The notes below the pieces were generated by a model. The model was given only the letters and a program-made list of their open reading frames with translations, did not search any database and was not told the DNA's origin. The position numbers were made by a program, and so were the translations under genes. From positions 32,914 to 96,913 of the IMG/VR virus record IMGVR_UViG_3300033149_002604: a stretch of DNA of 64,000 bases. One strand, written 5' to 3'. Source of the DNA: a virus. Shown one piece after another: positions 22,657 through 46,158 of the stretch; the first letter of the stretch is position 1, and each line of letters starts with the position of its first letter.

Positions 22657-23946
22657 TTACCAACTGTTAAGCGCTGATCGTTTCCAAGTATTGTTGGCAA
22701 CACAAACGTAGATGTAATCACTATCCCAACAGATTTCCCCAACATTCCCAGTAGCGTTGACTGAAGATGGTGTTTTAGAGGATCTTAAGCGAAAGATGTT
22801 AGAATTAATATCTACAGCAGCAGTTGGGGTTGCTGTTTTGATCCCAATATCTCCGAAGGTGTTATATACAGCACTTACACCGTCTGTCAGCCAACGAGCG
22901 GAATGCTCATCAGCAGTCAGATGATAATATTCGTCTGATGTTCCACCCTGTAAGCCAGTTAACGCATTGTGTTCTACAACAGATTTTGGTATGAAGTATA
23001 AATCAAAAGCACTTTCTATACTTTCAAATGATGAAGCATTCTTTTGAACAATTATCTTACCAATTATCCTACCAATACTAGCAATTACACCTGGAAGAGA
23101 TGCTGGTGGTTGAGCGTTTTGAGCATCTGTTAGTAGATAGTCATCCTGTCCGTATACAACAAAAACATGTCCTTCGATGTCAACATAAATCCAATGAACA
23201 CCATAATATCTTCGCCAACCAAAAGGATCTGATAATGTCGCTAATGTTCCTGATCCATCATCATAATGCAGATTATCAATCTGTGTTTGTCCTGTAACTT
23301 TAGTCCATCCACCAGAACCATCCCTATAATAATATGTAAATGTATCTGTTCCAGAAGTATCAAAACTAGGGAAGGTAACTTCTGTCAGCCCTGCATAATA
23401 AGTACCAGAGGTAATAGCAATATTTCTTGTTCCTGTTTCTGATATTTGTATACCATTAACTCTCTGAAACTTTCCATTCACATCTAAGTCTTTCCAGAGG
23501 GTATTTTTGGCGTAATTAGCAACAACTTGGCCCGCTGTCGTAATATATAAATCTGTTCCATCTCTGTAGACAAGCCCAAGCATCACATTTGTATTTTTGT
23601 CTGAGGGAATTGAAGTGCTTGTTACAATTTGTGGATTTCCACTATTATATTCTACATAGATGTAATTGGTAGTGTTGTCAGTTAGAGAAATTGAACTATT
23701 GGCTGACCAGTCAAATGTCTTGGTTAGTCCCACATCACTATCAGTTGTTTTTATAAGTCCCTTTCCTGCACTAACAGCAACAGTCCCATCACCATTATCA
23801 GTTATGTTTCCCCCTTCTAACTTTCCAGCCGAATGAATAACATTAATCAGATCTTGTAGGTTTGTATAAGTTGGTGTTCCGAGTTGAGAAATGCTAATGT
23901 TGGATGCGGTGAAATCTCCTATTTCACAGATTTCAACGTGGGCCAT
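22657..23946 (-). CDS. Virion structural protein (fibre-like)
   Basis: G/S/T rich; HNALTGLQGG..EYYHLT and GEICWDSDYIYVCVANNTWKR motifs. Confidence 0.7.
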   Translation of the reverse strand: MAHVEICEIGDFTASNISISQLGTPTYTNLQDLINVIHSAGKLEGGNITDNGDGTVAVSAGKGLIKTTDSDVGLTKTFDWSANSSISLTDNTTNYIYVEYNSGNPQIVTSTSIPSDKNTNVMLGLVYRDGTDLYITTAGQVVANYAKNTLWKDLDVNGKFQRVNGIQISETGTRNIAITSGTYYAGLTEVTFPSFDTSGTDTFTYYYRDGSGGWTKVTGQTQIDNLHYDDGSGTLATLSDPFGWRRYYGVHWIYVDIEGHVFVVYGQDDYLLTDAQNAQPPASLPGVIASIGRIIGKIIVQKNASSFESIESAFDLYFIPKSVVEHNALTGLQGGTSDEYYHLTADEHSARWLTDGVSAVYNTFGDIGIKTATPTAAVDINSNIFRLRSSKTPSSVNATGNVGEICWDSDYIYVCVANNTWKRSALNSW

Positions 23947-24264: not shown

Positions 24265-24732
24265 CTATTTTCCGACAATATTATTAAGCATTGGAGCAAT
24301 ACTGCTATCAACATTCTGATTGTCGTTTCCAAATCTGGTACATTCAATCTTGTATATTTTACATATAGCAGGAATCATGTTGTTCAGAAGTTCAACATCT
24401 TGGTAGTAAACTTTCATATACTTATTAACTAAACACATTAACTGTAAGCTGGTAGCAAGTCTTTCAATATCTACACAGTCACTTTTGTAGCGTAAATTTT
24501 GCAGCTTTTTTATTCCTAGAAGTTTACCAACCTTAAGTAGATCATACTTACGTTGGGCATATCTGGCTTCATCACAAAGTCTAAAACCATATTTCTTTTC
24601 TATCTGCATTGGTACTTCAGTGTCATCACACACTATCAGAACTTCATAATGGAAATCGCACTTTTGTATTTCCGATGCTAAGTGGTAAATCCAATCATAG
24701 GTGTTAAAGGAAACTATTAGTGCTTTATCCAC
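24265..24732 (-). CDS. PIG-L/LmbE deacetylase-like protein, degenerate
   Basis: LIV...VLIVCD...R..D....KLLGI...L.Y pattern but no HPDD motif. Confidence 0.4.
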   Translation of the reverse strand: MDKALIVSFNTYDWIYHLASEIQKCDFHYEVLIVCDDTEVPMQIEKKYGFRLCDEARYAQRKYDLLKVGKLLGIKKLQNLRYKSDCVDIERLATSLQLMCLVNKYMKVYYQDVELLNNMIPAICKIYKIECTRFGNDNQNVDSSIAPMLNNIVGK

Positions 24733-24778
24733 AGTATTTCTCCATTCGGAAGTGGCGGTTCGCTAATAACGTTATATG

Positions 24779-25483
24779 TTACTGTGAGATCATTTTATTA
24801 TTTACAACCATATAGATTCTTCCATTTATGACTTCACAATTTATAACCATATTTAAATCTAAAAAGAATTTAATGAAAAATCCCAGACTTTTTACTGAAA
24901 TGTGTTCTAATTGATCTACACAATTAGGAAACTCAGGAGTATAAATCAAAAGATGACCACTCTTTTTCATCTTTGAAAGTGCCCACTTAGTAATTTTCTT
25001 ATACAGCTCATCAGTTACATGTTCAGCAAAGTCTATCTGCAATATAGTATCAAAATCGTCATCTACTTCTGGAAACCAACTAAAATCACAACATATGGAT
25101 TCAATCCTATTATCTAAGTAGGGCTTAAATGCTTCAATTGAATACTTATTACCATCAATACATACAATCTTCGATAAATCGGGTTTTCTTCTGAGAAGAA
25201 ACATTGCTCCTAATCCTGGTCCACCAACATCTAATACTTTACCTTTAATTGTTCCACCAAACATTTTCACCAGATTGTTCCATTTGTTTATGTGGACATT
25301 GGAAAGTCTTGGAAATCTTTCATCATATTCTTCTTTTAAAAGCTTTATGTATTCATGGGCTGTATACTTTCCGAATCTAGTTTCAATACAATACTTTTCA
25401 AAACACCTTTTAGGATCTCCATATTTCCTTAAGTGCCACTCTTCTGAAGTAGCTTCATAAACAATCATAGTTTCTCCAACCAA
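24779..25483 (-). CDS. Class I SAM-dependent methyltransferase
   Basis: KVLDVGGPG, FDTILQIDFAEHV, GHLLIYTP. Confidence 0.85.
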   Translation of the reverse strand: MVGETMIVYEATSEEWHLRKYGDPKRCFEKYCIETRFGKYTAHEYIKLLKEEYDERFPRLSNVHINKWNNLVKMFGGTIKGKVLDVGGPGLGAMFLLRRKPDLSKIVCIDGNKYSIEAFKPYLDNRIESICCDFSWFPEVDDDFDTILQIDFAEHVTDELYKKITKWALSKMKKSGHLLIYTPEFPNCVDQLEHISVKSLGFFIKFFLDLNMVINCEVINGRIYMVVNNKMISQ

Positions 25484-28422
25484 TTTATGTTGTCTGCTGT
25501 TACATTCTTTATAGCAAAATCAACCCGTGGTAGATCACACCAGTTACATAGTCCATAAAATTCACATCTTAAATCATCTAAATTTATAGGTCTAAAGTCT
25601 TTGATATTGCAGATGGGTTTGATGTTGTAGTATAGTCTGTAATGACAATTGAAATAGTTTCCAGACGGATCAATTATTAAAGAAAATATTCCATGTGGAC
25701 ACATTACTGTTGTTCCTTGGCTTTGCCCACACATTTTCCTGTAGAAGGTATAATCATAGATTCCACACATTCTTCTAGCGGATTCTTGGTCCCAGTAACC
25801 CTCATTAGGATATAAGCAATCGGGACGGAAATCTTTAGCATATCCATTTTCTTCAGTCCAGAATCCTAAGAATGGGGGGGATTTTAGTTCTGGAAGAGAA
25901 TTTCTAACCTTTTCTATCCTCTCTTTCCATTTAGTTTCTATTTCAGGGATATAAACAAATGCGATTTGGTCAACATACAACCCACAATCTCTCATTTCAT
26001 TTATTCTAGAAACATATTCCTCTGGTTCCAGTGCATGTGGATGATATGAAGTATTGATTCTTAATGTAGAACCAAATCTAGGTTTAAGTTGTTTGAATTT
26101 CTTACTTTCCCAAAATTCCCCCTTACAATTCGTAGTAATTGTTATATAATAATCTTCAAGATTGTTGACTATTTCAACCAAATCTTTGTGTAATGTTGTT
26201 TCCCCACCTATTAGAGACAATCTTTGCCTTGGTTCGTGATATAAATTATTCCACCAATTTAATATTTCTTTACCACTTAATTCTTCACGTGGAACGTGTT
26301 TACCCCTACCATCTACGATACAAAACGGACAATTTCCATTACATCTAAATGTAATCATGTGTGCCCAATAACACATTGGGTAATAATAGTTGCTAGGTAA
26401 AACTTTTAGCTGTGTTGTTCTTTTATTAAAGTCTGTTACCAAACTTCTTAATCTGTTTATACGTTTTTCAATATCACATTCTGCAAGTTCAAAGTCAATA
26501 AACTTGAATTCCCCATCTTTAATCAATATATTATTTATGTTCAAATCAAATATTCCAACTGCTTCTAATATTTTATGGGCTTCATCAATTATCTTATAGT
26601 ACAGTTCTTTGTTTAAAGATCCTATCTCACCAAGATTTCTCCAATCAAAATATTCAAATAAAATAAATTGATCTTGTATAGCTATTGGTTTTACCACATG
26701 CTTAGAAGCCTTATAAGCTGCAACAGTTCTATCAAATTGATCATCTGCAAAGTTGACTAGACTATCATTGGGATAAAATTTTTCACTTAACCAATCGTTA
26801 TACAGTTGTTCTTTTACAAAATATTTGTTTCCATTGCTGTCTGATACTGTGAAATACCTTACATCTTCTTTGGATTTATGCCTATTACGAAATTGATCTA
26901 CTATTTGATATTCTTTATCTCCAAACCTTATCTTCTTATTCTTCATGTGTTCAGGAAGTTCATCAGAAAACCAAAACAGCCATCTTTCCACACCATGAAT
27001 TTTTTCAGAACAAATCGTTTCAACGTGTGTTGAAATACCTAATTTCTCTGAAACCCATTTTGGAAATTCGGTTCTATGGTCTGTAAACTTTGGAATAAGA
27101 TTTATCCAAGGGGTCCATTCACTACCCTCTTCATTAGATTGTCCCATATCAAATATAACATTCTTGGAAATCCTACCTACTTCTGAAAGAATCTGATCAG
27201 CCACTTCAGCAGAATACTGTTCATAGATATGATGATGGACACTCATGTAAAAAGTGAATTCAAATTCCTTATCCTTGAATTCTTTCAACCTATCTAATAA
27301 ATCTTTTTCTAGCAGTTCGAATGTACATTTATTATTAGCAGCCTGTGCCTTCTTTGCAGATTCGATCATCTTAGGATCTGTATCTAGCCCTAAAACATCA
27401 AATCCCATTTGGGCAGCTAGGATGGAAAAATACCCGTTGTTGCAACCAATATCTAAAATCTTACCTGACTTTTTCTTAACAAGTATAGGTTCTATGTATC
27501 GCCATCTTTTAGCTGAATCCCGCTTTCCACCACACTGTCCTGTAACAGACGAATTATATGATGTATCTACGTTATTGAAATAATTAAGAATGTCCTGCTT
27601 GTACTTATTCCAGTTCAAAATTTCAGTTAAATCATTAGCATTTCCGGCTACCTGTACATTACCGAATAGTGGTATGGCTTGGTGAACTGGGGTGCTTTTA
27701 AACATAGCCAAGAGATTTTTCCTAAATGCACCTGCAATGTGCATCACCACACTGTCTATTGCACATATAAAATCTACATAAGCAATAAGTGCTTTACTGA
27801 ATCGCATGTCATCTTCTGGTAATTCGATGGATCGGGAACATGATTTACGACCAAATTCAAATATCGTAAACTGGTTGAACATTTCGTTCATCATCTTTTC
27901 TATTATGTCTGATTCAAATTCTTTGGGTGGATTTCCAGCTTTATTGTGTAGAATCAGCCAAGGTTTGTCATACTGGCTAAGATATTCCATTGCTTTTTTA
28001 GCATAGTCTTCACGGAAGGTAAGTTCGGTGATGAGTTCTTCTATCCTATCAAATTTAATTCCCAATTCATCTGCTGCCCTGAATATCTTGTGCATCTTGA
28101 ATCCAGCTTGTCGTAGTAAGGGAAGGGTTATGATGTTGTCATACTTGCCTAAATATTCATACTTGACTGATCTGTCAAGTTCCCTAATATTGTCAAGATA
28201 CCCATCATAAGACTTTACATTTTCCCAAGGATCAGGAAGGATTGGCAAGAATTCATCTACAAAGGTAAATTCTAGTAGTTCTTCAACCTTTGAACCAAAC
28301 CTTTGTAGACTTGCTAGGGAAATTTCAGTATCAGAACAGATTTGCTTGTACTTTCTTAAAGCTGGGGTTAATAAGATATGGTCGCCTAAGCCGTGGGGGT
28401 AAACTATTAGAATCTTTGACAT
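25465..28422 (-). CDS. Four-domain fusion: GT9 glycosyltransferase + SAM methyltransferase + kinase-like + radical SAM/SPASM (likely start 28422)
   Basis: HGLGDHILLTPAL and IDSVVMHIAGA (GT9); ILDIGCNNGYFS...MSVHHH (methyltransferase); FVKE...DLNINNIL...FIDFE (kinase); CNGNCPFC, IGGET and C-terminal Cys (radical SAM). Confidence 0.85.
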   Translation of the reverse strand: MSKILIVYPHGLGDHILLTPALRKYKQICSDTEISLASLQRFGSKVEELLEFTFVDEFLPILPDPWENVKSYDGYLDNIRELDRSVKYEYLGKYDNIITLPLLRQAGFKMHKIFRAADELGIKFDRIEELITELTFREDYAKKAMEYLSQYDKPWLILHNKAGNPPKEFESDIIEKMMNEMFNQFTIFEFGRKSCSRSIELPEDDMRFSKALIAYVDFICAIDSVVMHIAGAFRKNLLAMFKSTPVHQAIPLFGNVQVAGNANDLTEILNWNKYKQDILNYFNNVDTSYNSSVTGQCGGKRDSAKRWRYIEPILVKKKSGKILDIGCNNGYFSILAAQMGFDVLGLDTDPKMIESAKKAQAANNKCTFELLEKDLLDRLKEFKDKEFEFTFYMSVHHHIYEQYSAEVADQILSEVGRISKNVIFDMGQSNEEGSEWTPWINLIPKFTDHRTEFPKWVSEKLGISTHVETICSEKIHGVERWLFWFSDELPEHMKNKKIRFGDKEYQIVDQFRNRHKSKEDVRYFTVSDSNGNKYFVKEQLYNDWLSEKFYPNDSLVNFADDQFDRTVAAYKASKHVVKPIAIQDQFILFEYFDWRNLGEIGSLNKELYYKIIDEAHKILEAVGIFDLNINNILIKDGEFKFIDFELAECDIEKRINRLRSLVTDFNKRTTQLKVLPSNYYYPMCYWAHMITFRCNGNCPFCIVDGRGKHVPREELSGKEILNWWNNLYHEPRQRLSLIGGETTLHKDLVEIVNNLEDYYITITTNCKGEFWESKKFKQLKPRFGSTLRINTSYHPHALEPEEYVSRINEMRDCGLYVDQIAFVYIPEIETKWKERIEKVRNSLPELKSPPFLGFWTEENGYAKDFRPDCLYPNEGYWDQESARRMCGIYDYTFYRKMCGQSQGTTVMCPHGIFSLIIDPSGNYFNCHYRLYYNIKPICNIKDFRPINLDDLRCEFYGLCNWCDLPRVDFAIKNVTADNINWLEKL

Positions 28423-29339
28423 TAATCGCCTCGCATTATGGTTGTTATTATCTTTTCCGTAACATCCTTCCAAGTATGCAACTTTCTAACCTTTTCTAGT
28501 CCTTCCCTTGCAATTGCTTCCCTTTCATCGTCATGTTTCAGGTAATATTCTACCAGTTCCATGAATTCACTTTCATTCTTGAACCAAACCAAATTCTTCT
28601 TATTGTCAAAGAACAAACTTAAATCATCACAGAATTCTGAAAGTAAAAATCCACCACAACCTAATGTAGTTACCACACGATCGCTGAATATGTTGGAATG
28701 AACTAGATTTAGAACTATTTTATACTTGTTGATAGTCTTTCTTAAGTCAGCTAACACTATTGGTGGATTAGGTGAAATTTCTTCAGGCCAACCTTGACCG
28801 TAAACGTCTATCAGGTCTAAGTGTTTAGAAACAAAATTCAATCTTTTAGCTGTAGCACTTCCAAAGAACAGAATTTTATCAATCTTGTTGGTATTATCTT
28901 CTGGATAGAATATATCTGGATCATAGCCTTCTATAATTAGGTAGGACTTCCCAGTATATTTATGTCTATCAAAGAATTCAACTACTTCACTTGAAGTTGC
29001 GCTTGCAAAATTTACCCTAGTCACGTATTGTTCTGCCCGAATAGCTTCAGCAACCCTAATATTGTCCATGAACCAGTACCAAGTTGTACATTGTTCAGTC
29101 ACTTTTTGAACAATTGCTGGGTTGACGCCATTTATTTTGCTGAATAATACCAATTCAGGTTTGTATCTGTTGACGGCCCACAATAGATAATCATAGAATA
29201 CTTCTTTTCCTTCCTTGGAAATGATTGTTCTGTAATTTATAGGAATTACACCCCAACCATTCTGCTTAAAACCTTTTGCCATCCAGACATTGGTGCTTTC
29301 TGGTTTGTCTAGTACACCAACGATCATTACTTTTGGCAT
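28422..29339 (-). CDS. Glycosyltransferase (CgeB/Glyco_trans_1_2-like)
   Basis: GYDPDIFYP, DVYGQGW, YKIVLN, SDRVVTTLGCGGFLLSE, YYLKHDDEREAIAREG. Confidence 0.85.
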   Translation of the reverse strand: MPKVMIVGVLDKPESTNVWMAKGFKQNGWGVIPINYRTIISKEGKEVFYDYLLWAVNRYKPELVLFSKINGVNPAIVQKVTEQCTTWYWFMDNIRVAEAIRAEQYVTRVNFASATSSEVVEFFDRHKYTGKSYLIIEGYDPDIFYPEDNTNKIDKILFFGSATAKRLNFVSKHLDLIDVYGQGWPEEISPNPPIVLADLRKTINKYKIVLNLVHSNIFSDRVVTTLGCGGFLLSEFCDDLSLFFDNKKNLVWFKNESEFMELVEYYLKHDDEREAIAREGLEKVRKLHTWKDVTEKIITTIMRGD

Positions 29340-30340
29340 GGGACTTCTCCAATTATTTGGTTTAGGTTTTCCGTATGCTTATTGACTACATCTTCATATT
29401 GCTGCCTTTTCAAATTTTCTACTTCATTCAGTCTATCAAGCATTGTCGCTATGTCAGATAGGATGGTTTCAGCATCAATAGCCCGATAATCTGAAACATA
29501 TCTAAAACTTACTGGTACATCAAACCTGTTTTCCAACACAGCATGTCTATGTTTTTCATGTCCAATAATATAGCTGGGACAACAGCTTTGTAAACTTACA
29601 TGTGTAAGACCAGATTGACTACTAACTGAACATACTGCTGAATTTAGATAGGTTACAATTTGATCCATTTTATCTTCACCATCGTAATCAATCAGGTTGA
29701 TTACATTGTCTGCCTTGTACCCTGATAGGAATGAACCAGATGGTGTACCACAAAGTACCACAATGAAGTATTTTCTTAACCCTTCTACAACTTCAGCCCA
29801 TACAAATTCGGGTACATTTCTAAAAGCAGCTCTACTCCTCCCTCGCGGCATTACACAAATAATATCCCGTTCTAGTTTAACTTTAGGTCTTACAAGTTTC
29901 CTGAAAATCTGTGGTGCATAATTTATAAAAGCATTACATCCACGTGGGGGAAATATTTCTATAGTCTTTGTCCAGTCATAAAAGGTTCTGCAATATTCTA
30001 TGATTTTAGAATATACATGTGGGGGTGTTAGGCTTCCTGGTGGTGATCCAAGTAGTGGTGCTTCATAACAATCCCGTTCCAATTCCATACCATAAAACCA
30101 GTCGGGAAGTTCTATCGTATAGTCTACGAAGTCTTCTACGAATATGTGGTAATCCAATTCTGTGAACAGTATGAATTTTCTGTCCTTATATTCATTGTGC
30201 TTAAGAAACCTCAGATGTGCTTGAAAGCGGCTTAAAAACCACCCCAATTCACCATAAAAGAAAGATGCAACACAAGGTTCATTTATGTACAAATCCTTAT
30301 TTATTATCTGGCTGTGCTGGATTGTCTGTGTTCCTTCCAA
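29327..30340 (-). CDS. GT-B glycosyltransferase, GT9-like
   Basis: GELGW N-terminus; INLIDY...VSSQSGLTHVS resembles the GT9 DSG.MH motif. Confidence 0.6.
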   Translation of the reverse strand: MEGTQTIQHSQIINKDLYINEPCVASFFYGELGWFLSRFQAHLRFLKHNEYKDRKFILFTELDYHIFVEDFVDYTIELPDWFYGMELERDCYEAPLLGSPPGSLTPPHVYSKIIEYCRTFYDWTKTIEIFPPRGCNAFINYAPQIFRKLVRPKVKLERDIICVMPRGRSRAAFRNVPEFVWAEVVEGLRKYFIVVLCGTPSGSFLSGYKADNVINLIDYDGEDKMDQIVTYLNSAVCSVSSQSGLTHVSLQSCCPSYIIGHEKHRHAVLENRFDVPVSFRYVSDYRAIDAETILSDIATMLDRLNEVENLKRQQYEDVVNKHTENLNQIIGEVPCQK

Positions 30341-30701
30341 ACCGCAACTCCTTTAAAATATTCTTTATATCCCTTCGCATTTCGTACTGGTTGGCTTTAA
30401 GTTCCTTTATTGCTTCATACAGCAGGGTATAGCTAGATTCAAGTTTTGCTACACGTTCATTCTGTGCTGCTACTGCCTGCTTGTCTGCAAATCGCATTAC
30501 TGCCGATTGATTGTCACTCCACAGCTTCACCCCAGTAGAAATGGCTGGAATAGCTATAGCACCAATGATAATATACAACCACTTTTTAGGTACTTTATTT
30601 GCTACACATCTTACCAACCCACCAGTACCATCCTTACCATACAATGCTTCTTCTATTTTACGTAATGTGGACTGGCATTCGGGATCTGGACAATTGGTCA
30701 C
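30297..30701 (-). CDS. Single-TM coiled-coil membrane protein
   Basis: LYGKDGTGGLV, TM helix, coiled coil. Confidence 0.6.
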   Translation of the reverse strand: MTNCPDPECQSTLRKIEEALYGKDGTGGLVRCVANKVPKKWLYIIIGAIAIPAISTGVKLWSDNQSAVMRFADKQAVAAQNERVAKLESSYTLLYEAIKELKANQYEMRRDIKNILKELRFGRNTDNPAQPDNK

Positions 30702-31455: not shown

Positions 31456-31544
31456 TAAAAGTCACTTCCTAGTTATTTGTGTGTTCCTTCATCAGCATTG
31501 ACAAAAGTTTCTTTTTTAACGTTGAGCCCATCCATTTCAAACTC

Positions 31545-33188
31545 CTACTGCGTTGATATGCCTCCTGAGATGGAGACGCCGTGGAAATTACCCCATCTAT
31601 ATTCGTAAGCACCGATGTCCCAGGCTGAGCCTTGAGGTCTAGAGATATTATCAAGATCATAATTGTAAGTAGTACCTAAATCTATCCCAGAATCTACACA
31701 ATCGGAACTGCTTCTTAAATAGTAATTGTTATTTGCTGGATCTATAAAACTGGCTTGTTTGTTATCTCCCGCAGAATCATGACTATTTACACCTTCATTC
31801 TGCTCAGCTATAAAATCGTCGAATAACTTCATTCCACCAGAATAATAATAATTTATATTGGTACAACCAATATCTGCTATGCACCATCTGACTACACGTT
31901 GGTCGCCATTCCCTTGGTCGAAAAGGTTGTAATCTCCTGTATAAATCAAATCAGAAGAATCATAAACACATAAATCGCCGTCGTTTGTGTCTCCATCAAT
32001 ATTATTCTGATAAAGGACGCAATTTTTCATTGTAACAAGAGTATCTCTATTGCTATATGAGGGTGCACTAAGATATACACCAAATGAGTTGTTAGCAAAT
32101 GTACAATTATATATATAGACTGTGGGGCCATTATATACATGGCACCCAATGTTATTCTCATAAGCCAAACAGGAAACAAAATAAAACCTTGAATTGCCAG
32201 TAGAATCCGCTGCATTAGCAGCAAAACCATCATCATTGTTATATGAGCGGCATCGTTTAAAAATGATGTTATCGTCTAATACACTATTCGACACAGTCCC
32301 ATTGTCAAAACCATCTCCTTCATTATCGTAAGCTAAACAATCGCTTATAGTAATATCATGAGAATCAGTTATCCAGAAGCCATGTTTTAGGTTCCCACCA
32401 CCGCCACCACCTCTTGGTGTATCTCCATTGTTATGTGAAATACAATTAGATATAATCCCATTACTACAACCATATGTAGAACCCCCAATGTAGAATCCAG
32501 TCGTCAAATCATTATCTCCACCATCGGCTTCACACCATTCAATTGTAAAACTGTCTTGTCGTTGTATAACATAGCTCTGTTTTCCGCTATTTATACACTT
32601 AACATGGCTCATCTCTAGACCACTACATTTTGAGGCTTCAGATGTTCCTAGTGCTCTTATTGAATAATAATCGGCTCCAGAAACAATAAAACCGTCGTAT
32701 GAACTACTTATACCGGCGATTCCACTTATTGTTAGATAAGGAATAGGTGTGATGGTTCCATCTGGTAAAATTCCAATATTTATTAACGCTTGGTATTCAT
32801 CAGAATATGATGCGTTACTATCTGTAAAAATTACAGATCCAGTTCCCCAATTTATGTCACGTTTTATGGAAATTCTGTTACTTGGTGTAGCAGAATTAGA
32901 ATAGTAATCTGTGTTTATATAAATAACACCAATATGTGTAGTGCCAGACTTTATAAAAATCAAATCTCCAGGTTGAATAGTAACTGAAGGGCAGTTGTAA
33001 CCGGTATTATCCAATTTTCGTGTGCCAGGAATATGTTGCCAAGGCGTAGAAGTTGACAATCCATCATTAGAGTCAGAACCACTACTAGGGTCAACATAGT
33101 ATGTACTGGCCCAAGAACAAAATAAGGAAACAAATAGAAAGATCAATAAAAATATACTAACAATAAAAATTCTTTTATTAATCAACAT
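31545..33188 (-). CDS. Signal-peptide-bearing right-handed beta-helix (pectin lyase-like) protein
   Basis: Hydrophobic N-terminus, YYVDPSSGSDSNDGLS..PW, repeated NC..Y.N rungs, C-terminal RPQGSAWDIGAYE. Confidence 0.85.
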   Translation of the reverse strand: MLINKRIFIVSIFLLIFLFVSLFCSWASTYYVDPSSGSDSNDGLSTSTPWQHIPGTRKLDNTGYNCPSVTIQPGDLIFIKSGTTHIGVIYINTDYYSNSATPSNRISIKRDINWGTGSVIFTDSNASYSDEYQALINIGILPDGTITPIPYLTISGIAGISSSYDGFIVSGADYYSIRALGTSEASKCSGLEMSHVKCINSGKQSYVIQRQDSFTIEWCEADGGDNDLTTGFYIGGSTYGCSNGIISNCISHNNGDTPRGGGGGGNLKHGFWITDSHDITISDCLAYDNEGDGFDNGTVSNSVLDDNIIFKRCRSYNNDDGFAANAADSTGNSRFYFVSCLAYENNIGCHVYNGPTVYIYNCTFANNSFGVYLSAPSYSNRDTLVTMKNCVLYQNNIDGDTNDGDLCVYDSSDLIYTGDYNLFDQGNGDQRVVRWCIADIGCTNINYYYSGGMKLFDDFIAEQNEGVNSHDSAGDNKQASFIDPANNNYYLRSSSDCVDSGIDLGTTYNYDLDNISRPQGSAWDIGAYEYRWGNFHGVSISGGISTQ

Positions 33189-33747
33189 ATACCCTCACTG
33201 CCAAACCTTCAGCATATGATGTCAATGACGAATCATCCTCACAGTTATCAGTAGCATAATCTATAACAGTTGAATAATAACCATTAACGTCTTCCGAATA
33301 ATATTTTACATTCCCAGAAGAGTCGTCTGATATAAGTATATATAAAGTTATTCCATTTGAAACAGAGATCCCAGGAGATACCGTTATATCTGATACCCAA
33401 CCACTTGCTGGTGCAGCTATACCACGTTGGTACCATAAACAATTCCCAGATGAGTCTAAAATCTCAATTTTAAGATTACGACCAGTTCCATATGAATTTA
33501 TCTTGCAAGAAACCTTCGTTACCGTTCCACCTTGGTCAAAAGTTATTTTATCTCCGCTGGCGGTAGCTGCACCACTTATATATAAATATCCAGCATAAGT
33601 AGGCTCTGTAGTTGCACCATCATTATAATAATACTGATCTGGTCCTCCACTACTAGACGAACTCCCACTAATAATCACCGTCCCCCACCCCCACACTAGG
33701 GCAGGGATGAGAAGCAAGACTAAAGCTAATGCAATCCACTTTTTCAT
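33178..33747 (-). CDS. Signal-peptide-bearing beta-rich protein
   Basis: MKKWIALALVLLLIPALVWG, then Ser/Gly linker. Confidence 0.75.
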   Translation of the reverse strand: MKKWIALALVLLLIPALVWGWGTVIISGSSSSSGGPDQYYYNDGATTEPTYAGYLYISGAATASGDKITFDQGGTVTKVSCKINSYGTGRNLKIEILDSSGNCLWYQRGIAAPASGWVSDITVSPGISVSNGITLYILISDDSSGNVKYYSEDVNGYYSTVIDYATDNCEDDSSLTSYAEGLAVRVYVD

Positions 33748-35372
33748 TAGTCAGCACCTCCATCAGACCAGGTTCCCGATCTCCCAAGCGTTATCCAAGT
33801 GCTGTCATCTATTGCTAGCAAGCTAATGAAATCCCCTGCATTGCCTTCGCTGTCAATAGCGTTGCCAGCAGTAAGGGATGTTCCATCTAAAATGATAGTG
33901 TCTGAATCATCATATGTATCTACCGTTACCGTAGCTGCATACTTGGAATAGAAAGTAATGCTCAAGCCAGCAGCCGCAGCAGGAAGGGTGTAATCAATAG
34001 CATCATTGTCATTGTTGATTCTCATACCACCCTTGCAGTCTGAAGCTGAAAGGGTCACTGAGGCATCTGTGTCTAGTATTACAGGAACATTTCCAGAGAG
34101 ATTACCTGTGAGAGCTAGGCTTGTACCTGTAGCTGCCCCTATGTTAGGTGTGGTTAATGTAGGACTGGTTGCTAAAACTACACTCCCACTTCCAGTGGTT
34201 CCGTTAGACAGGTCAGAGGCGGATATCTGAGAGCCGTTGATCTTATACTTTTTCCCAGAGGCTAAATTAAAATCACTAGCTGCCTCGATATTACCATCAG
34301 CATCAAGTTGCATGATCGTAGTAAGGGTTCCATTAACAAGAACCTGAAAGAACAAATCAACATCCTCAGTCCCATCTCCTGTGTCTGTAGCGTTCCCATA
34401 TATCTTCCAGTCAATACTTTCAGCACTTGTGTCTGAATCGTCTCCTGTGATGTCTGGTGTAGCTGAAGCCCCTGATTGGATACCCCCATCAGCATATAGG
34501 GTTCCATCAACTTCCAAAACTCCCTCTACTCCAAGTTGTGGAGAATGACCAAAATTGTAACTTCCATCACCAATATAAATGTTATGATTGTTACTATCTA
34601 GATTCCCACCTAGTTGAGGGGAGGTGTCTTCAACTACATTCTTCAATAATGAAGAACCATCTGAGAGGTTACTTGAGCTTATTTGACTTCCGTTTATCTG
34701 ATAAATAGCCCCACTTGGTAAATTCAGATTACCAGTGTCATCAATTGTGACGTTTGAGTTCTGGATCGTCTTCCCACCAGTTCCATCAAACCTTGCAATG
34801 GCGTTATCAGTTGAGGAAGCTGGCCCCGTTACATCACCGCTACCTGATGGTGTCGCCCAAGCACCGTCACCACGCAAAAACTCTGAAGTGGAACCACTAA
34901 GCTTAGGCAGGAGACCATGAGCCGAAGTGGATGCATTTGCTGTGGTGACATCAGAAAAGTTTAGTTCTCCTTCCTCAATGCTCGTACCAAGACTTACCGA
35001 AAGTGTAGTATCTGAAAACGAAAATCCTGTTCCAAAAGTGAGCCAAGTTATCGCTCCAGCCGAATCATCCCAGAACAATCCCCTATCTGCATTGGGATCG
35101 GATAATGATGCACCAGTCCCACCATCTGCAAGGGCCACGTCTGTTGATCCTGGGGCATAGTAGTCAGTACCTGCTGTAGCAGCACTAAAATCCCCAGCAC
35201 CGTCACATTTAACGATTCCACTGACTCCATCTAAGTCATCTATCTCTTGTAAGAAGGTATCAACCTGACTACCCGTGTAACCTGTAGTAGTATTATAGGC
35301 ATAAATAAACGATCCTACACAAATACAAAGCAAAGCTATGATAAGACCTATAATATATTTTTTTGTCTTCAT
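33747..35372 (-). CDS. Signal-peptide-bearing fibre-like structural protein
   Basis: MKTKKYIIGLIIALLCICVG; fibre motifs VALADGGTGAS, GDVTGPASSTDNAIARFDG, DTSPQLGGNLD, GSGSVVLATSPTLTTPNIGAATGTSL. Confidence 0.8.
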   Translation of the reverse strand: MKTKKYIIGLIIALLCICVGSFIYAYNTTTGYTGSQVDTFLQEIDDLDGVSGIVKCDGAGDFSAATAGTDYYAPGSTDVALADGGTGASLSDPNADRGLFWDDSAGAITWLTFGTGFSFSDTTLSVSLGTSIEEGELNFSDVTTANASTSAHGLLPKLSGSTSEFLRGDGAWATPSGSGDVTGPASSTDNAIARFDGTGGKTIQNSNVTIDDTGNLNLPSGAIYQINGSQISSSNLSDGSSLLKNVVEDTSPQLGGNLDSNNHNIYIGDGSYNFGHSPQLGVEGVLEVDGTLYADGGIQSGASATPDITGDDSDTSAESIDWKIYGNATDTGDGTEDVDLFFQVLVNGTLTTIMQLDADGNIEAASDFNLASGKKYKINGSQISASDLSNGTTGSGSVVLATSPTLTTPNIGAATGTSLALTGNLSGNVPVILDTDASVTLSASDCKGGMRINNDNDAIDYTLPAAAAGLSITFYSKYAATVTVDTYDDSDTIILDGTSLTAGNAIDSEGNAGDFISLLAIDDSTWITLGRSGTWSDGGAD

Positions 35373-35390
35373 TTTGTACCCCTCATTGTT

Positions 35391-35642
35391 TTATGACTTC
35401 ACATTAAAAACCTCAAAGCTTCCTTCCCCGTCTGAGACGTTGAATGGTTCAAACCCGCCACCACCATCAGAGACGTTAAATGCTTCAAAAGGGACCACAG
35501 CAGAACTCTGCCCCCATCTACCAACATTCCACTCTTGGTTTCCCCATCTATCACTATTCCATCTTGATCTATTCCAACCTGCATCTACAACAGAACATAT
35601 TAGAAGTATTCCACAAATCAATAAAAAGATATTTCTTACCAT
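35391..35642 (-). CDS. Small signal-peptide protein with W-rich and FNVSDG repeats
   Basis: Hydrophobic N-terminus ending VDA; RWN/RWG pentapeptides; three FExFNV units. Confidence 0.65.
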   Translation of the reverse strand: MVRNIFLLICGILLICSVVDAGWNRSRWNSDRWGNQEWNVGRWGQSSAVVPFEAFNVSDGGGGFEPFNVSDGEGSFEVFNVKS

Positions 35643-36115
35643 TATTGTCTCCCCAAATATCCAGTCAATGTTGCATCATCTGCTCCGCCTGTCTCGGTAG
35701 CCCTAATTTTAAAGTATTTTCCAAATATTCCGTTGAAATCAATCGAAAAGCAATCCTTGCCGTTGCTTCCATTTCCCGAAGTCTTGGTAAATCCAGTAGC
35801 TATGTCACTAACACCTGTAGGTTCAAGAAAACTAGAATCATCAGTATCAGTATACGAAATTAGCAATTCAAATTTTAAAGTCGGATTACCTGTAGCACTA
35901 ACTTCTGGACAAAACACAAAATATCCATCAGGACGTGTGCCGTCTAGTCTTATGATGGAAGAATCTACAGAATCACCAGCAGAAACGGTAACGTTATCAA
36001 ATATCTTAGTAAATTCAATGAATTGATCTGAAGAATATACGCTACCAGCAAGCAGAAACACAAACAACAGACACAAAGCAAGTATCTTAAGTGCTTTCAT
36101 TCCAAATACCCCCAA
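35642..36115 (-). CDS. Signal-peptide-bearing beta-sandwich protein
   Basis: MKALKILALCLLFVFLLAGSVYS; GKYFKIRATETG. Confidence 0.75.
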   Translation of the reverse strand: MGVFGMKALKILALCLLFVFLLAGSVYSSDQFIEFTKIFDNVTVSAGDSVDSSIIRLDGTRPDGYFVFCPEVSATGNPTLKFELLISYTDTDDSSFLEPTGVSDIATGFTKTSGNGSNGKDCFSIDFNGIFGKYFKIRATETGGADDATLTGYLGRQ

Positions 36116-36162
36116 AATTGGTTGTTAGATTGAGAGATAAGAATCCCCCAATCTATATATTT

Positions 36163-36525
36163 TTACTTAACCTTAGTAGCTGCATTATCAGCAGTAAATA
36201 GCCACATGCTACCAGCTGAAGAAAGGGTCATAGAACCTTTCACAGAAGCATCTACTGCGGTAGCTTCAGCAACTATGGTAGCAGCAGTATTAGCTGTGCT
36301 GATAAAAATATACTGATGGTCACCTATCTTAATTCTACCGCTAGAATGAAGTAGTGGGGCAGTTACTGAAGTGTTGCCAGTAAGTGTAGTAGCTGTTACA
36401 GCATTAGCTGTTATTGTTGGTGTGTGTAAGGAAGTATTACCAGTAAATGTAGTAGCTACAACCGTGTTTGCGGTTATTGTTTTCCCTTTTGCAATAATAT
36501 TACTTCTAAAATGTGTCGTTCCCAT
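36163..36525 (-). CDS. Hypothetical virion protein
   Basis: AAGGAGGTGA RBS; Thr-rich tandem repeat. Confidence 0.7.
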   Translation of the reverse strand: MGTTHFRSNIIAKGKTITANTVVATTFTGNTSLHTPTITANAVTATTLTGNTSVTAPLLHSSGRIKIGDHQYIFISTANTAATIVAEATAVDASVKGSMTLSSAGSMWLFTADNAATKVK

Positions 36526-36647: not shown

Positions 36648-36680
36648 ACTAGATTGGGGAAAGATTACCCCAATCTAGTA
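36648..36680. terminator. Hairpin downstream of the major capsid gene
   Basis: ACTAGATTGGGG/CCCCAATCTAGT inverted repeat. Confidence 0.6.
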
Positions 36681-36699: not shown

Positions 36700-38476
36700 T
36701 TAGCTAGAAGCAATTGCATTAGCATACCAAAATCGCCAATTGGTTACTACTCCACCATAGCGACAATTGATAGTAATGAAATAATCAAGCGACACCTCAT
36801 CGATGAACGTATCAATGATAGGATCTTGGCGGTTGCTTGCAATTAGTCCTTCCTTGGCTTTTCCTAAGAACCACCCATCAGTGTCACTCAGATAACTCCA
36901 CTCTATCGGATTCACCAACCCACGGAGCACATTGACATCATTGTCTGCACTTCCAGGGATCAGTGTAGAATTCAGAAGCACCTGAGCAGTAAACTTCAGT
37001 GCGGGTGGAATCAAAAGGGTGTCTGGAAGTATTTCTACAACATTTCCCCTTTCATCCCTATTGTTGGTAGAAGTCATAGTAAGATATACTGACCTCAAAT
37101 TAGATTCCGTCAAAGAATTGGAAGCACCATAATTAGAATAGGTGTTCCCAACCTTATCGGGGTGTGCAGTAGAGAAGAAAGGTTTATTGTCATAGATCAA
37201 GTTCCCTGTAGGATCATCAATAACATTAGCAATGGTGTTATTAAAAACATCATTGCCAGCAGTCATTGCCCCGTAGTTGAAGAACTTGGCATAGAACTTT
37301 TCCTTGGTTCTAAGATATGCCTTACCCCAAGAACCAACAGCCTGTTGGATAAGGTTAGACTTCTGGCTGTCTTCGATAGATTCTTTGGAAAATCTAGCAA
37401 TCCTTCCAAAAGTCCTGTTCTTGCAGATTACAGTGTAACCTTCCATTGGGGCATCTGGCTGCAAGTCTTCACTTTCAGGTTTTTCCACCAAGTCACCCAT
37501 TCCGATAGCTGTGGTGAATTTCTCATCACATTTGTTACTGTCTATTGACAGGACTGGTCATTTCTGCCAGTCTCCACACATTGCTGTGTGGGTCGGACTA
37601 TATCACTACTAGATTTATCATCTAGCAGGTTGGCGTACGGACCTAGTTTGTATCTCATACAAGGAACTATATATGGTTTGATAATTTCTACAAATCTGTC
37701 ATTGTGTTTATTTCGAAGTCTTAATCTATATTTATAATTACCAAGTTTCGTTTTTCCTGCCTTATTGATATTCCAATCGAGATCAAACTTCAATTTAAGG
37801 CTTTTTTTGAGAAGAAGTTGATTAGCATAATCATAAGCTTCGGTACTTAGATAAAATGTAACATCTTTGCCATTAGGATTAAAACCATGTGTGCCGTTAT
37901 CCATGAATAAAATTGCTAATGAAAGTGGATTTAGTTTCTTTACGATATATTCATCTAAGACCTTTCTACCATTATAATACATTCTCTTTCTAAGTTTGGT
38001 AAGCATTGGATGTTGTCTTGTTCCTAGATGGTATCCATAAAATATCTTACCATTTAATTCTCTCTTCGTTTTGTGTATTGAAGATGATGTTATTTTATCA
38101 AGGAACTTTTTCTTCCAGAGCATATATTCGTATTGAGCTTCACAGTGGCTCATCTGAAAAAAAGCTTCACTTCTACCTTTTCTACACGACAAACACCCAT
38201 CTCCCATTACCATTGCTATTATCACACTTCTAAGTTCTTCTCTATTTAGGTCCATAGTCTCTACACCCTCCTTAAAGGATTGGCTCGGTATTGTCCTCAG
38301 GGGATTTCCACCGAATTTAGCCAACTACGCGCATAAGTTTACGCTGCATCGGAATCAACTACATCAAATATATTTTCATACACGGGAGCTTTTTGCTCAT
38401 AGGCTTCCCAGAAGAAACCATAGGCCGTCTTCTTCATATTTTCAGTAAAATCATCACGTCTTACTCCGCCTGCCAT
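36700..38476 (-). CDS. Major capsid protein (Mu gpT-like), spliced: exon 1 38476-38341, exon 2 37526-36700 (320 aa)
   Basis: Joined product MAGGVRRDDF...VDSDAA-Y-EKFTTAIGMGDL...; YDNKPFFSTAHP, PDTLLIPPAL, WFL, RYGGVVTNWR motifs; follows scaffold. Confidence 0.92.
37527..38340 (-). ncRNA. Group I intron (814 nt) in the major capsid gene, with an ORF starting in the P8 region
   Basis: 5' exon ends GCGT and pairs with GCGC (U.G); P AATTCGGTGGAAA, Q AATACCGAGC, R GTAGAGACTA, S GATATAGTCC; P9 hairpins; terminal G. Confidence 0.93.
37542..38255 (-). CDS. Intron-encoded LAGLIDADG homing endonuclease (likely start 38255)
   Basis: IAMVMGDGCL and LAILFMDNG motifs; AAGGAGG RBS inside the intron core. 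Confidence 0.9.
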   Translation of the reverse strand: MDLNREELRSVIIAMVMGDGCLSCRKGRSEAFFQMSHCEAQYEYMLWKKKFLDKITSSSIHKTKRELNGKIFYGYHLGTRQHPMLTKLRKRMYYNGRKVLDEYIVKKLNPLSLAILFMDNGTHGFNPNGKDVTFYLSTEAYDYANQLLLKKSLKLKFDLDWNINKAGKTKLGNYKYRLRLRNKHNDRFVEIIKPYIVPCMRYKLGPYANLLDDKSSSDIVRPTQQCVETGRNDQSCQ

Positions 38477-45435: not shown

Positions 45436-46158
45436 CTATCTGATCTCATCAACAAAGCCGTATTCTTTCGCCTTATCCGCAGTAAACCAGGTATCTTCTT
45501 TCATCATTTCCAACACACGCTTCTTAGAAAGCTTACTATTCTTGGAAACTATTTCAGCATACTTATTCTGCAACAGATGAATCATGTTCCGTTGGCTGTC
45601 TAGTTCACGTAAGCCTTCAGTAAAGAATCCCCATTTCCACAACTTGGCTGGGTGAATCAAGAATATAGTATTTTTGCTTACGATCCTGTGATCCCCAGTT
45701 AAGAACACCGGAACTGCTGCTGAAGCAATCAACCCACGACCTACCATCGTTATGTTGAAATCTTTCTTTGCTATCCGTAATTCATCAGCAAATGCCATTC
45801 CCTGGAATGCCTGCCCACCAGGGGAATTCAGATATACCACAATGTCTTTTATCCCCCTGTTGTGTAGTAGTGTCAGGTCATTCCACATATCTTCCGAACC
45901 ATAGGAAGATATGCTGGTGATAGTAATATAAGCGGTTTTGTCAAACAACCTACAATTGTTTGACAATTCCATTTCTTCATTTTGTACATCCATCACTTTG
46001 CTGACAGTATCTTTGTCTTTACTGACAGCAACGGATTTATCTGTTTTAACTTCAATGGTAACTTTTGTGGGTGGGAATTGTTCAATAGGTTGTTTTACTG
46101 TGGTAATACAGGAACATAAACCAAATAAAATTACAATTAATATTAATAGTTTTTTCAT
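45436..46158 (-). CDS. ClpP-like (S14) protease with lipoprotein signal peptide
   Basis: YLNSPGG, IASAA, FLIHP, DTWFTADKAKEYGFVDEI; MKKLLILIVILFGLCSC lipobox. Confidence 0.85.
   Translation of the reverse strand: MKKLLILIVILFGLCSCITTVKQPIEQFPPTKVTIEVKTDKSVAVSKDKDTVSKVMDVQNEEMELSNNCRLFDKTAYITITSISSYGSEDMWNDLTLLHNRGIKDIVVYLNSPGGQAFQGMAFADELRIAKKDFNITMVGRGLIASAAVPVFLTGDHRIVSKNTIFLIHPAKLWKWGFFTEGLRELDSQRNMIHLLQNKYAEIVSKNSKLSKKRVLEMMKEDTWFTADKAKEYGFVDEIR

Follow-up and report, generated by a model that had tools for sequence, protein, structure and literature searches.

Tailed phages assemble wholly in the cytoplasm, and to our knowledge the exported phage proteins known so far are single small genes or lysis factors. 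T5 Llp, phi80 Cor, and lambda Lom and Bor are exported and act on the host envelope, and some of them prevent superinfection or the loss of progeny on debris. In Bdellovibrio bacteriovorus, the mosaic adhesive trimer (MAT) fibres carry signal peptides, are displayed on the cell surface and have exchangeable binding tips (PMC10769870), and XepA of PBSX is a late, exported protein that is absent from particles (PMC6834076). Here we analysed a window of 64,000 nucleotides (nt), bases 32914-96913 of the single-contig, 96,913-bp IMG/VR virus record IMGVR_UViG_3300033149_002604 from an uncultured tailed phage, in which five adjacent minus-strand open reading frames (ORFs), O1 to O5 (31545-36100), each carry an N-terminal export leader. 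Our favoured reading, to which we assign a probability of about 0.45, is that these genes encode an exchangeable Sec-exported complex that binds or cuts glycans and acts on the envelope of the infected cell instead of building the particle. Unlike Llp, Cor, Lom and Bor, which are single small lipoproteins or outer-membrane proteins, the cassette comprises 5-8 genes, includes large fibre and beta-helix proteins and lacks a lipobox. In a full-text literature search we came across no account of tailed-phage modules that combine several exported fibre genes, and no published phage assembly scheme covering such an exported block.

The leaders were called by a simple rule on n-, h- and c-regions, combined with conservation in homologues. 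In all five proteins a K or R stands within the first 2-6 residues, the uncharged hydrophobic core is 13-20 residues long (best 15-mer Kyte-Doolittle score 2.9-3.2), and a site obeying the -3/-1 rule follows (O1 VYS/S, O2 VDA/G, O3 IYA/Y, O4 VWG/W and O5 SWA/S, the slash marking the site). This rule flags only 9 of the 129 ORFs in the 96.9-kb genome, five of them adjacent (permutation p = 5e-5), so that the run of five consecutive Sec-type leaders seen in the initial annotation is confirmed. None of the five leaders was flagged by the lipobox pattern. G-rich Shine-Dalgarno-like boxes stand ahead of starts that lie upstream of the hydrophobic segments (for O1 the start is an ATG, the program-listed TTG at 36115 being unlikely), and no credible start was found past those segments, where the alternatives lack G-rich boxes. 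The concern that the real starts might lie downstream finds little support, with a possible GTG at codon 24 of O4 as the sole exception. All five N-termini have the make-up of ordinary secretion signals of bacteria; the leaders resemble genuine Sec/signal peptidase I signals, and the products most likely leave the cytoplasm.

Our comparison covered 33 related viral loci gathered via a portal alignment, together with eight further records examined in full or in part (G000 is the source phage, the other G numbers are its relatives, and L numbers denote the loci or records compared). Conservation of the leaders, which the initial annotation had proposed as a check, is found in the near relatives of O3 and in most non-truncated relatives of O5, and the O1 family is mixed.

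It is conceivable, though in our judgement improbable, that the hydrophobic N-termini stay uncut and act as membrane anchors, or that they are used only in part, in which case the proteins would be tethered to the cytoplasmic membrane or a leaderless isoform would also be made. Evidence for this comes from O4, whose leader and first mature residues are 75% identical to those of G001 over 32 amino acids (aa), far better kept than the body of the protein. Within them lies a core of 46/49 identical nt, synonymous sites included, shared with this distant relative, and the core contains GGGGGTGGGGG, a G-run three bases ahead of the in-frame GTG. Two ClpP-fold proteases of the phage also bear similar leaders. 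On the other hand, all five proteins have canonical -3/-1 sites, h-regions of 13-20 residues fit signal peptides, the leaders of homologues show the free sequence variation that is typical of cleaved signals, and the alternative start is found in O4 only. The O4 core possibly represents either an internal start yielding a leaderless isoform or a recombination joint; a scan of IMG/VR for the conserved 5' motif retrieved G001 only.

The junctions O1/O2, O3/O4 and O4/O5 overlap and O2/O3 are separated by 18 nt; O1-O5 therefore form one translationally coupled operon, and we found no promoter-like or terminator-like sites flanking the block. The five genes behave as one module. Placement of the block directly after the capsid gene, as in the initial annotation, does not hold, since a conserved leaderless 120-aa gene (36163-36525) and two hairpins intervene.

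The largest body of comparative evidence concerns O3, for which we found 794 homologues. The eight nearest all carry a leader, and the distant ones are leaderless classical tail fibres with their usual N-termini; among the 120 relatives listed, 14 have a leader. No N-terminal virion-attachment domain was found in O3, and in O3 and its nearest relatives the leader stands in that place, so that the leader appears to have replaced the virion-attachment end. O3 carries repeated shaft motifs, with matches falling in the minor-tail regions of phages Boilgate and RcKemmy, and these motifs and the homologues uphold its description as fibre-like. The middle of the protein is 66% identical in aa to that of G001, exceeding the capsid (48%) and the portal (39%).

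In the monomer model of O3 the shaft is poor and residues 430-540 have a pLDDT above 92. The C-terminal domain matched the Pa223 capsid spike (Z 12.7, root-mean-square deviation (rmsd) 2.0 over 97 residues), the KP1 baseplate protein (Z 11.6) and the Solidus tailspike (Z 9.8), and residues 428-539 superposed on residues 79-185 of CBA120 TSP4 (Z 11.7, rmsd 2.1 over 96 residues). The fold found is thus the XD beta-sandwich, with 7rej_A (Z 11.7), 9f4a_Le (Z 11.6) and 9ny6_C (Z 12.7) well above unrelated matches. As in the T4 gp10-like XD complexes of CBA120 (TSP4/TSP2), fibre, spike and beta-helix genes occur together at this locus; however, XD domains lie N-terminally in cytoplasmic proteins and attach other spikes to the baseplate, whereas the O3 domain is C-terminal on a predicted exported protein. 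Residues 290-376 aligned with T5 pb1, the 9NA tailspike and four Bdellovibrio MAT fibres (Z 4-5.5; MAT 4.0-5.2). Like O3, MATs are phage-tail-fibre-like proteins with a signal peptide, but they are cellular genes of the predator with a conserved 130-aa beta-rich domain after the leader, whereas O1-O5 belong to the late operon of a phage, in which small sandwich and beta-helix proteins accompany the fibre, and the structural match is only middling and confined to shaft and tip.

O5 matches the right-handed beta-helix family PF13229 (1.8e-12, 47.6 bits against a cut-off of 25.9), in agreement with its earlier description as a beta-helix protein, and the choice-of-anchor-Q family NF041518 (31.3 bits against a cut-off of 25). 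Most of the non-truncated proteins among its ten relatives have a leader followed by xTYYVD..SG.DSN.G, and one homologue has a type IX secretion system (T9SS) tail and another a C-terminal membrane anchor. The leaders and anchors of these homologues, together with the choice-of-anchor-Q match, indicate that O5 descends from cellular secreted surface proteins. It resembles secreted choice-of-anchor-Q beta-helix proteins in exceeding both family cut-offs and in having the same leader and motif, but differs in lacking a C-terminal sorting anchor: the protein stops 17 residues past the Q domain, with neither a hydrophobic nor a T9SS tail, and phage copies keep a short tail instead. This conserved 15-aa C-terminal tail ends in GGISTQ. 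The tail S-G-G-I-S-T-Q (31545-31590, minus strand) is also found on two cassette proteins of G001 (L001 10790-10838 and 12850-12895), one of which is otherwise dissimilar to O5, and so behaves, as far as its distribution suggests, like a portable docking or sorting peptide.

O1 is predicted by AlphaFold2 (AF2) to form a helix (residues 2-21) followed by a jelly-roll sandwich (pLDDT 93.2). Its profile retrieved 658 clusters at E<=1e-3; in the best 152 of these a leader is present in 56 (137-160 aa) and absent from 96 (about 116-130 aa). On a quick tree of 146 family members the leader state changed at least 34 times, against 43.4 +/- 2.5 with shuffled labels, a count that is an upper-leaning estimate given the short domain on which the tree was built; the leader-bearing forms clearly do not make up a single clade. 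The best structural matches are XepA (Z 10.4), PirA (10.2), the BPP-1 cement protein (8.7) and YomS (8.5), along with carbohydrate-binding modules and lectins. Because these fall in a narrow range of Z, only the jelly-roll fold class is established for O1, and the initial description of the block as decoration-like survives in this generic sense for O1 but not otherwise. XepA and YomS are, like O1, late phage beta-sandwich proteins; their genes come after those for the tail fibres. XepA differs in being a two-domain pentamer from the lysis cassette of a Bacillus element; its Z is tied with those of generic jelly-rolls, and a search of the PDB with the O1 family profile gave no sequence link, retrieving neither XepA nor YomS.

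For the remaining two proteins the searches returned little. After its leader, O2 consists of four W/R-rich repeats and an F-x-x-F-N-V-S-D-G repeat that occurs three times, with no match in Pfam, PHROG or NCBIfam and no homologue among the relatives. The Atlas model of O4 has DUF4082, carbohydrate-binding-module-like and PEP-CTERM sandwich proteins as neighbours, which we take as a lead only. Sequence searches of the PDB with O4, O5 and the nearby GT9-like gene gave no matches. Among isolated phages we found no relative of O5 or of a leaderless relative of O1, and only short motif matches for O3.

The source genome (79% complete according to CheckV, 37% GC, without tRNA genes) descends on the minus strand from ~49 kb in head-to-tail order. 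Terminase, portal and scaffold genes are followed by a Mu gpT-type capsid gene split by a LAGLIDADG ORF, the 120-aa gene, O1-O5, three small genes and a glycosyltransferase block, and then by the head-tail adaptor, tail tube genes, tape measure, lambda-like tail tip and fibre genes. The tail tip consists of gpL-, gpK- and gpI/J-like proteins (phrog_31 match, 2.5e-108), so that the same phage encodes a complete leaderless tail, from tape measure through tail tip to a fibre (91-1692) and a fibre-like protein (22657-23946). The tail module ends with a borderline gene-transfer-agent (GTA)-type holin match and an adjoining 146-aa ORF, which looks like an endolysin and has no Pfam match.

Consecutive runs of leader-bearing ORFs recur in the relatives, with 5 in G000, 8 in G001, 3 in G002, 5 in G003 and 5 in G008, which is complete with terminal repeats. 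The same families return: a small O1-like gene comes first, the gene after the O3-like fibre encodes a small sandwich protein, which in G001 and G003 is O4-like, and beta-helix proteins are present. The cassettes of G000, G002 and G003 are found outside the tail module, and each occupies a place of its own among conserved genes: past the 120-aa gene in the source phage, directly past the capsid gene in its closest relative G002, and past a homologue of ORF 30297-30701 in G003. Many relatives keep the core gene order and have no signal-peptide run in the part visible. Genome-wide, blastn aligned only five segments between G000 and G001, three of which fall within the cassette, in the middle of O3, at the 5' end of O4 and at the 3' end of O5 (Table 1); over their bodies, O4 and O5 reach an identity of no more than 26-35%. 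This pattern, in which the ends are kept and the middles vary, suggests that modules have been exchanged by recombination. At the level of sequence, then, the cassette appears to be shared, to move between genomic positions and to have its middle parts swapped, and the three conserved pieces are candidate mutual contact surfaces.

Under the favoured reading, the five genes would form one accessory cassette, transcribed late and translationally coupled, whose products would be exported via Sec, cut by signal peptidase I and folded outside the cytoplasm. There they would probably form a complex with the O3 fibre as scaffold and the O1 and O4 sandwiches and the O5 beta-helix as sugar-binding or sugar-cutting parts. 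Late in infection this complex would strip or cover glycans on the envelope of the infected cell itself, phage would no longer be captured by the cell as it dies or by its debris, and progeny would escape; for building the particle it would be dispensable. For this proposal we infer export and cleavage as such, the formation of a complex, its glycan target and what the phage gains from it. It is favoured by leaders that appear genuine by rule and by conservation, by the apparent substitution of a leader for the virion-attachment end of O3, and by the membership of O5 in a family of cellular secreted surface proteins. A full leaderless tail tip with fibres is already in place, the cassette stands outside the tail module in three of the genomes and is missing from the visible part of many others, growth appears lytic, and XepA (PMC6834076) and the MAT fibres (PMC10769870) may serve as precedents by analogy. 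One variant of the receptor masking suggested earlier, in which a copy of the binding domain of the virion itself would do the masking, is weakened, as O1-O5 have no BLAST paralogue among the leaderless tail fibres.

The proteins might instead be displayed on the surface of lysogens, in a form of lysogenic conversion like that of lambda Lom and Bor, or be substrates of the neighbouring glycosylation cassette. Variable presence among the relatives would suit such a role, as would the glycosyltransferase genes that adjoin the cassette in G000 and G003. However, domain searches found no integrase, resolvase or rve domain in the source genome or in the complete relative G008, and the cassette would therefore act in lytic growth. 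The traits of a moron (its own promoter and terminator, expression from a prophage) are likewise missing from this tight late operon with its overlapping junctions. The link to the glycan cassette put forward in the initial annotation does not hold up either, since G001 and the complete G008 have the signal-peptide cassette without glycosyltransferase homologues and several relatives have glycosyltransferase genes and no signal-peptide run in the part seen. Counting N-X-S/T sequons gave 21 observed against 19.1 expected by composition, and O1-O5 were rejected as N-glycosylation substrates. We consider both roles highly unlikely. The GT9-like gene and the neighbouring glycosyltransferase genes (24265-30340, minus strand) have homologues between capsid and neck in G002, G003, G004, G006 and G009, and none in G001, G007 and G008; judging from this distribution, they are a lineage trait that looks independent of the signal-peptide cassette.

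A further possibility, which we hold tentatively, is two-compartment assembly, in which host-recognition gear is exported, folded (perhaps oxidised) outside the cytoplasm and docked on finished particles; the docking would come, just as tentatively, when the holin opens the membrane or after lysis. Several observations support it and weigh against a role on the envelope. The strongest is the context of the O1 family in many unrelated phages, from which exported versions may be virion gear. We compared 24 unrelated viral loci, where the O1-family gene usually comes after an ORF of very large size (800-2400 aa; of six such ORFs scanned, few have a named PHROG, and their function is mostly unknown). 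Downstream of the O1-family gene are fibre-like genes, and the final 110-140 residues of their products show homology to the C-terminal region of O3. The leaderless fibres at these loci share an N-terminal F-G-W-N..R.L motif, and the L087 protein has a textbook leader placed directly in front of it; L083, L087, L095 and L096 each combine leader-bearing with leaderless neighbours in one module. The modelled XD-like fold of the O3 C-terminal domain is that of docking domains in branched tailspike complexes. In G001 and G008 the cassette closes the tail module, in the very position that tail-fibre genes normally occupy, and in G001, G003 and G008 the one protein with common fibre motifs is the signal-bearing one. 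Conserved ends with variable middles are, moreover, typical of virion receptor-binding genes. Cysteine content is higher in leader-bearing O3 relatives than in leaderless ones (0.55% vs 0.28%, p = 0.005); the corresponding enrichment among leader-bearing O1 relatives was not significant (p = 0.057). Finally, no enzyme active site or glycan target was identified for O1-O5.

Other evidence speaks against docking on particles. No virion-docking domain was recognised in O1-O5, the phage already has leaderless fibres, the site between head and neck genes is unusual for fibres, and O5-type proteins are of cellular secreted origin. Docking after lysis would also be inefficient, and the literature search returned no description of it for tailed phages. 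In its most developed form, which we regard as doubtful, the idea would be that some of the host-recognition apparatus of this and several other uncultured tailed-phage lineages is made in a second compartment: Sec-exported fibre, lectin-like and depolymerase-like subunits would form a branched complex in the envelope, held together by the O3 middle, the O4 N-terminus and the O5 C-terminal tail, and would be attached to the cytoplasm-built particles only at lysis.

Table 1. Positions in the window of the cassette genes, of segments conserved in G001 and of neighbouring RNA hairpins
Feature	Position	Strand	Basis or measure
O1, 152 aa: predicted signal peptide of ~23 aa and jelly-roll, first gene of the cassette	35642..36100	-	AF2, homologue family
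O2, 83 aa: predicted signal peptide and W/R-rich repeats	35391..35642	-	sequence inspection; start overlaps O1 stop
O3, 541 aa: predicted signal peptide, shaft with tail-fibre repeat motifs, C-terminal beta-sandwich (426-540)	33747..35372	-	homologues, structure matches
O4, 189 aa: predicted signal peptide and beta-sandwich	33178..33747	-	Atlas neighbours; start overlaps O3 stop
O5, 547 aa: predicted signal peptide, right-handed beta-helix, choice-of-anchor-Q domain, C-terminal tail	31545..33188	-	PF13229, NF041518
Conserved middle of O3	34225..34620	-	to G001: 68% nt identity over 399 nt, 66% aa identity over 173 aa
Conserved DNA, O4 5' end	33648..33749	-	80.6% nt identity to G001 over 103 nt; core 46/49
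Conserved DNA, O5 3' end	31543..31643	-	83% nt identity to G001 over 101 nt
RNA hairpin between the 120-aa gene and O1	36126..36155	-	-16.2 kcal/mol, z -5.4, without U-tract
RNA hairpin just after the capsid gene	36648..36679	-	12-bp stem, -20.2 kcal/mol, z -4.8, without U-tract

The two hairpins upstream of O1 have in common an arm of the CTAGATTGGGG type and stand on either side of the conserved 120-aa gene. Their probable role is in RNA processing, stability or attenuation, by which expression would be lowered stepwise. The LAGLIDADG endonuclease ORF inside the capsid gene (37542-38324, minus strand) leaves a downstream capsid piece that covers only profile positions 64-262; L028 and L034 carry homologues of the endonuclease at the equivalent capsid site, and L016 and L017, the closest relatives, have none.

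The two ClpP-fold proteases with signal-peptide-like leaders are paralogues, located at 45436-46158 (minus strand) and at genome C1 27072-27854 (L106 1072-1854, plus strand); they match CLP_protease (1.7e-24 and 2.5e-17), with a weak Peptidase_S49 match. A leader-bearing homologue is found in L022 and a leader-bearing ORF at the equivalent position in L035, and no leaderless prohead protease lies between portal and scaffold. These proteases could process the exported cassette proteins or the signal peptides.

The host is probably a bacterium, given the NlpC/P60 gpK-like protein, the lambda-like tail tip and the borderline GTA-type holin match. The sole match in the genome collection was L015 (JAHIVQ010000019.1, 3762 bp), whose terminase and portal are ~50% identical to those of the source phage and which is binned as 'Nanoarchaeota'. 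This binning fits badly with the peptidoglycan-related and lambda-like tail genes of the phage, and we regard it as a weak host clue.

If true, the favoured reading would represent a new late-infection function at the host surface, with receptor destruction or masking on a larger scale than that of Llp or Cor; the alternative would be a two-compartment fitting of host-recognition proteins. Either would change annotation, in that 'tail fibre' would no longer imply 'virion part', and would affect the prediction of host range from metagenomic phages. For this question the O1 family offers a natural experiment, as its hundreds of clusters include both leaderless and leader-bearing forms.

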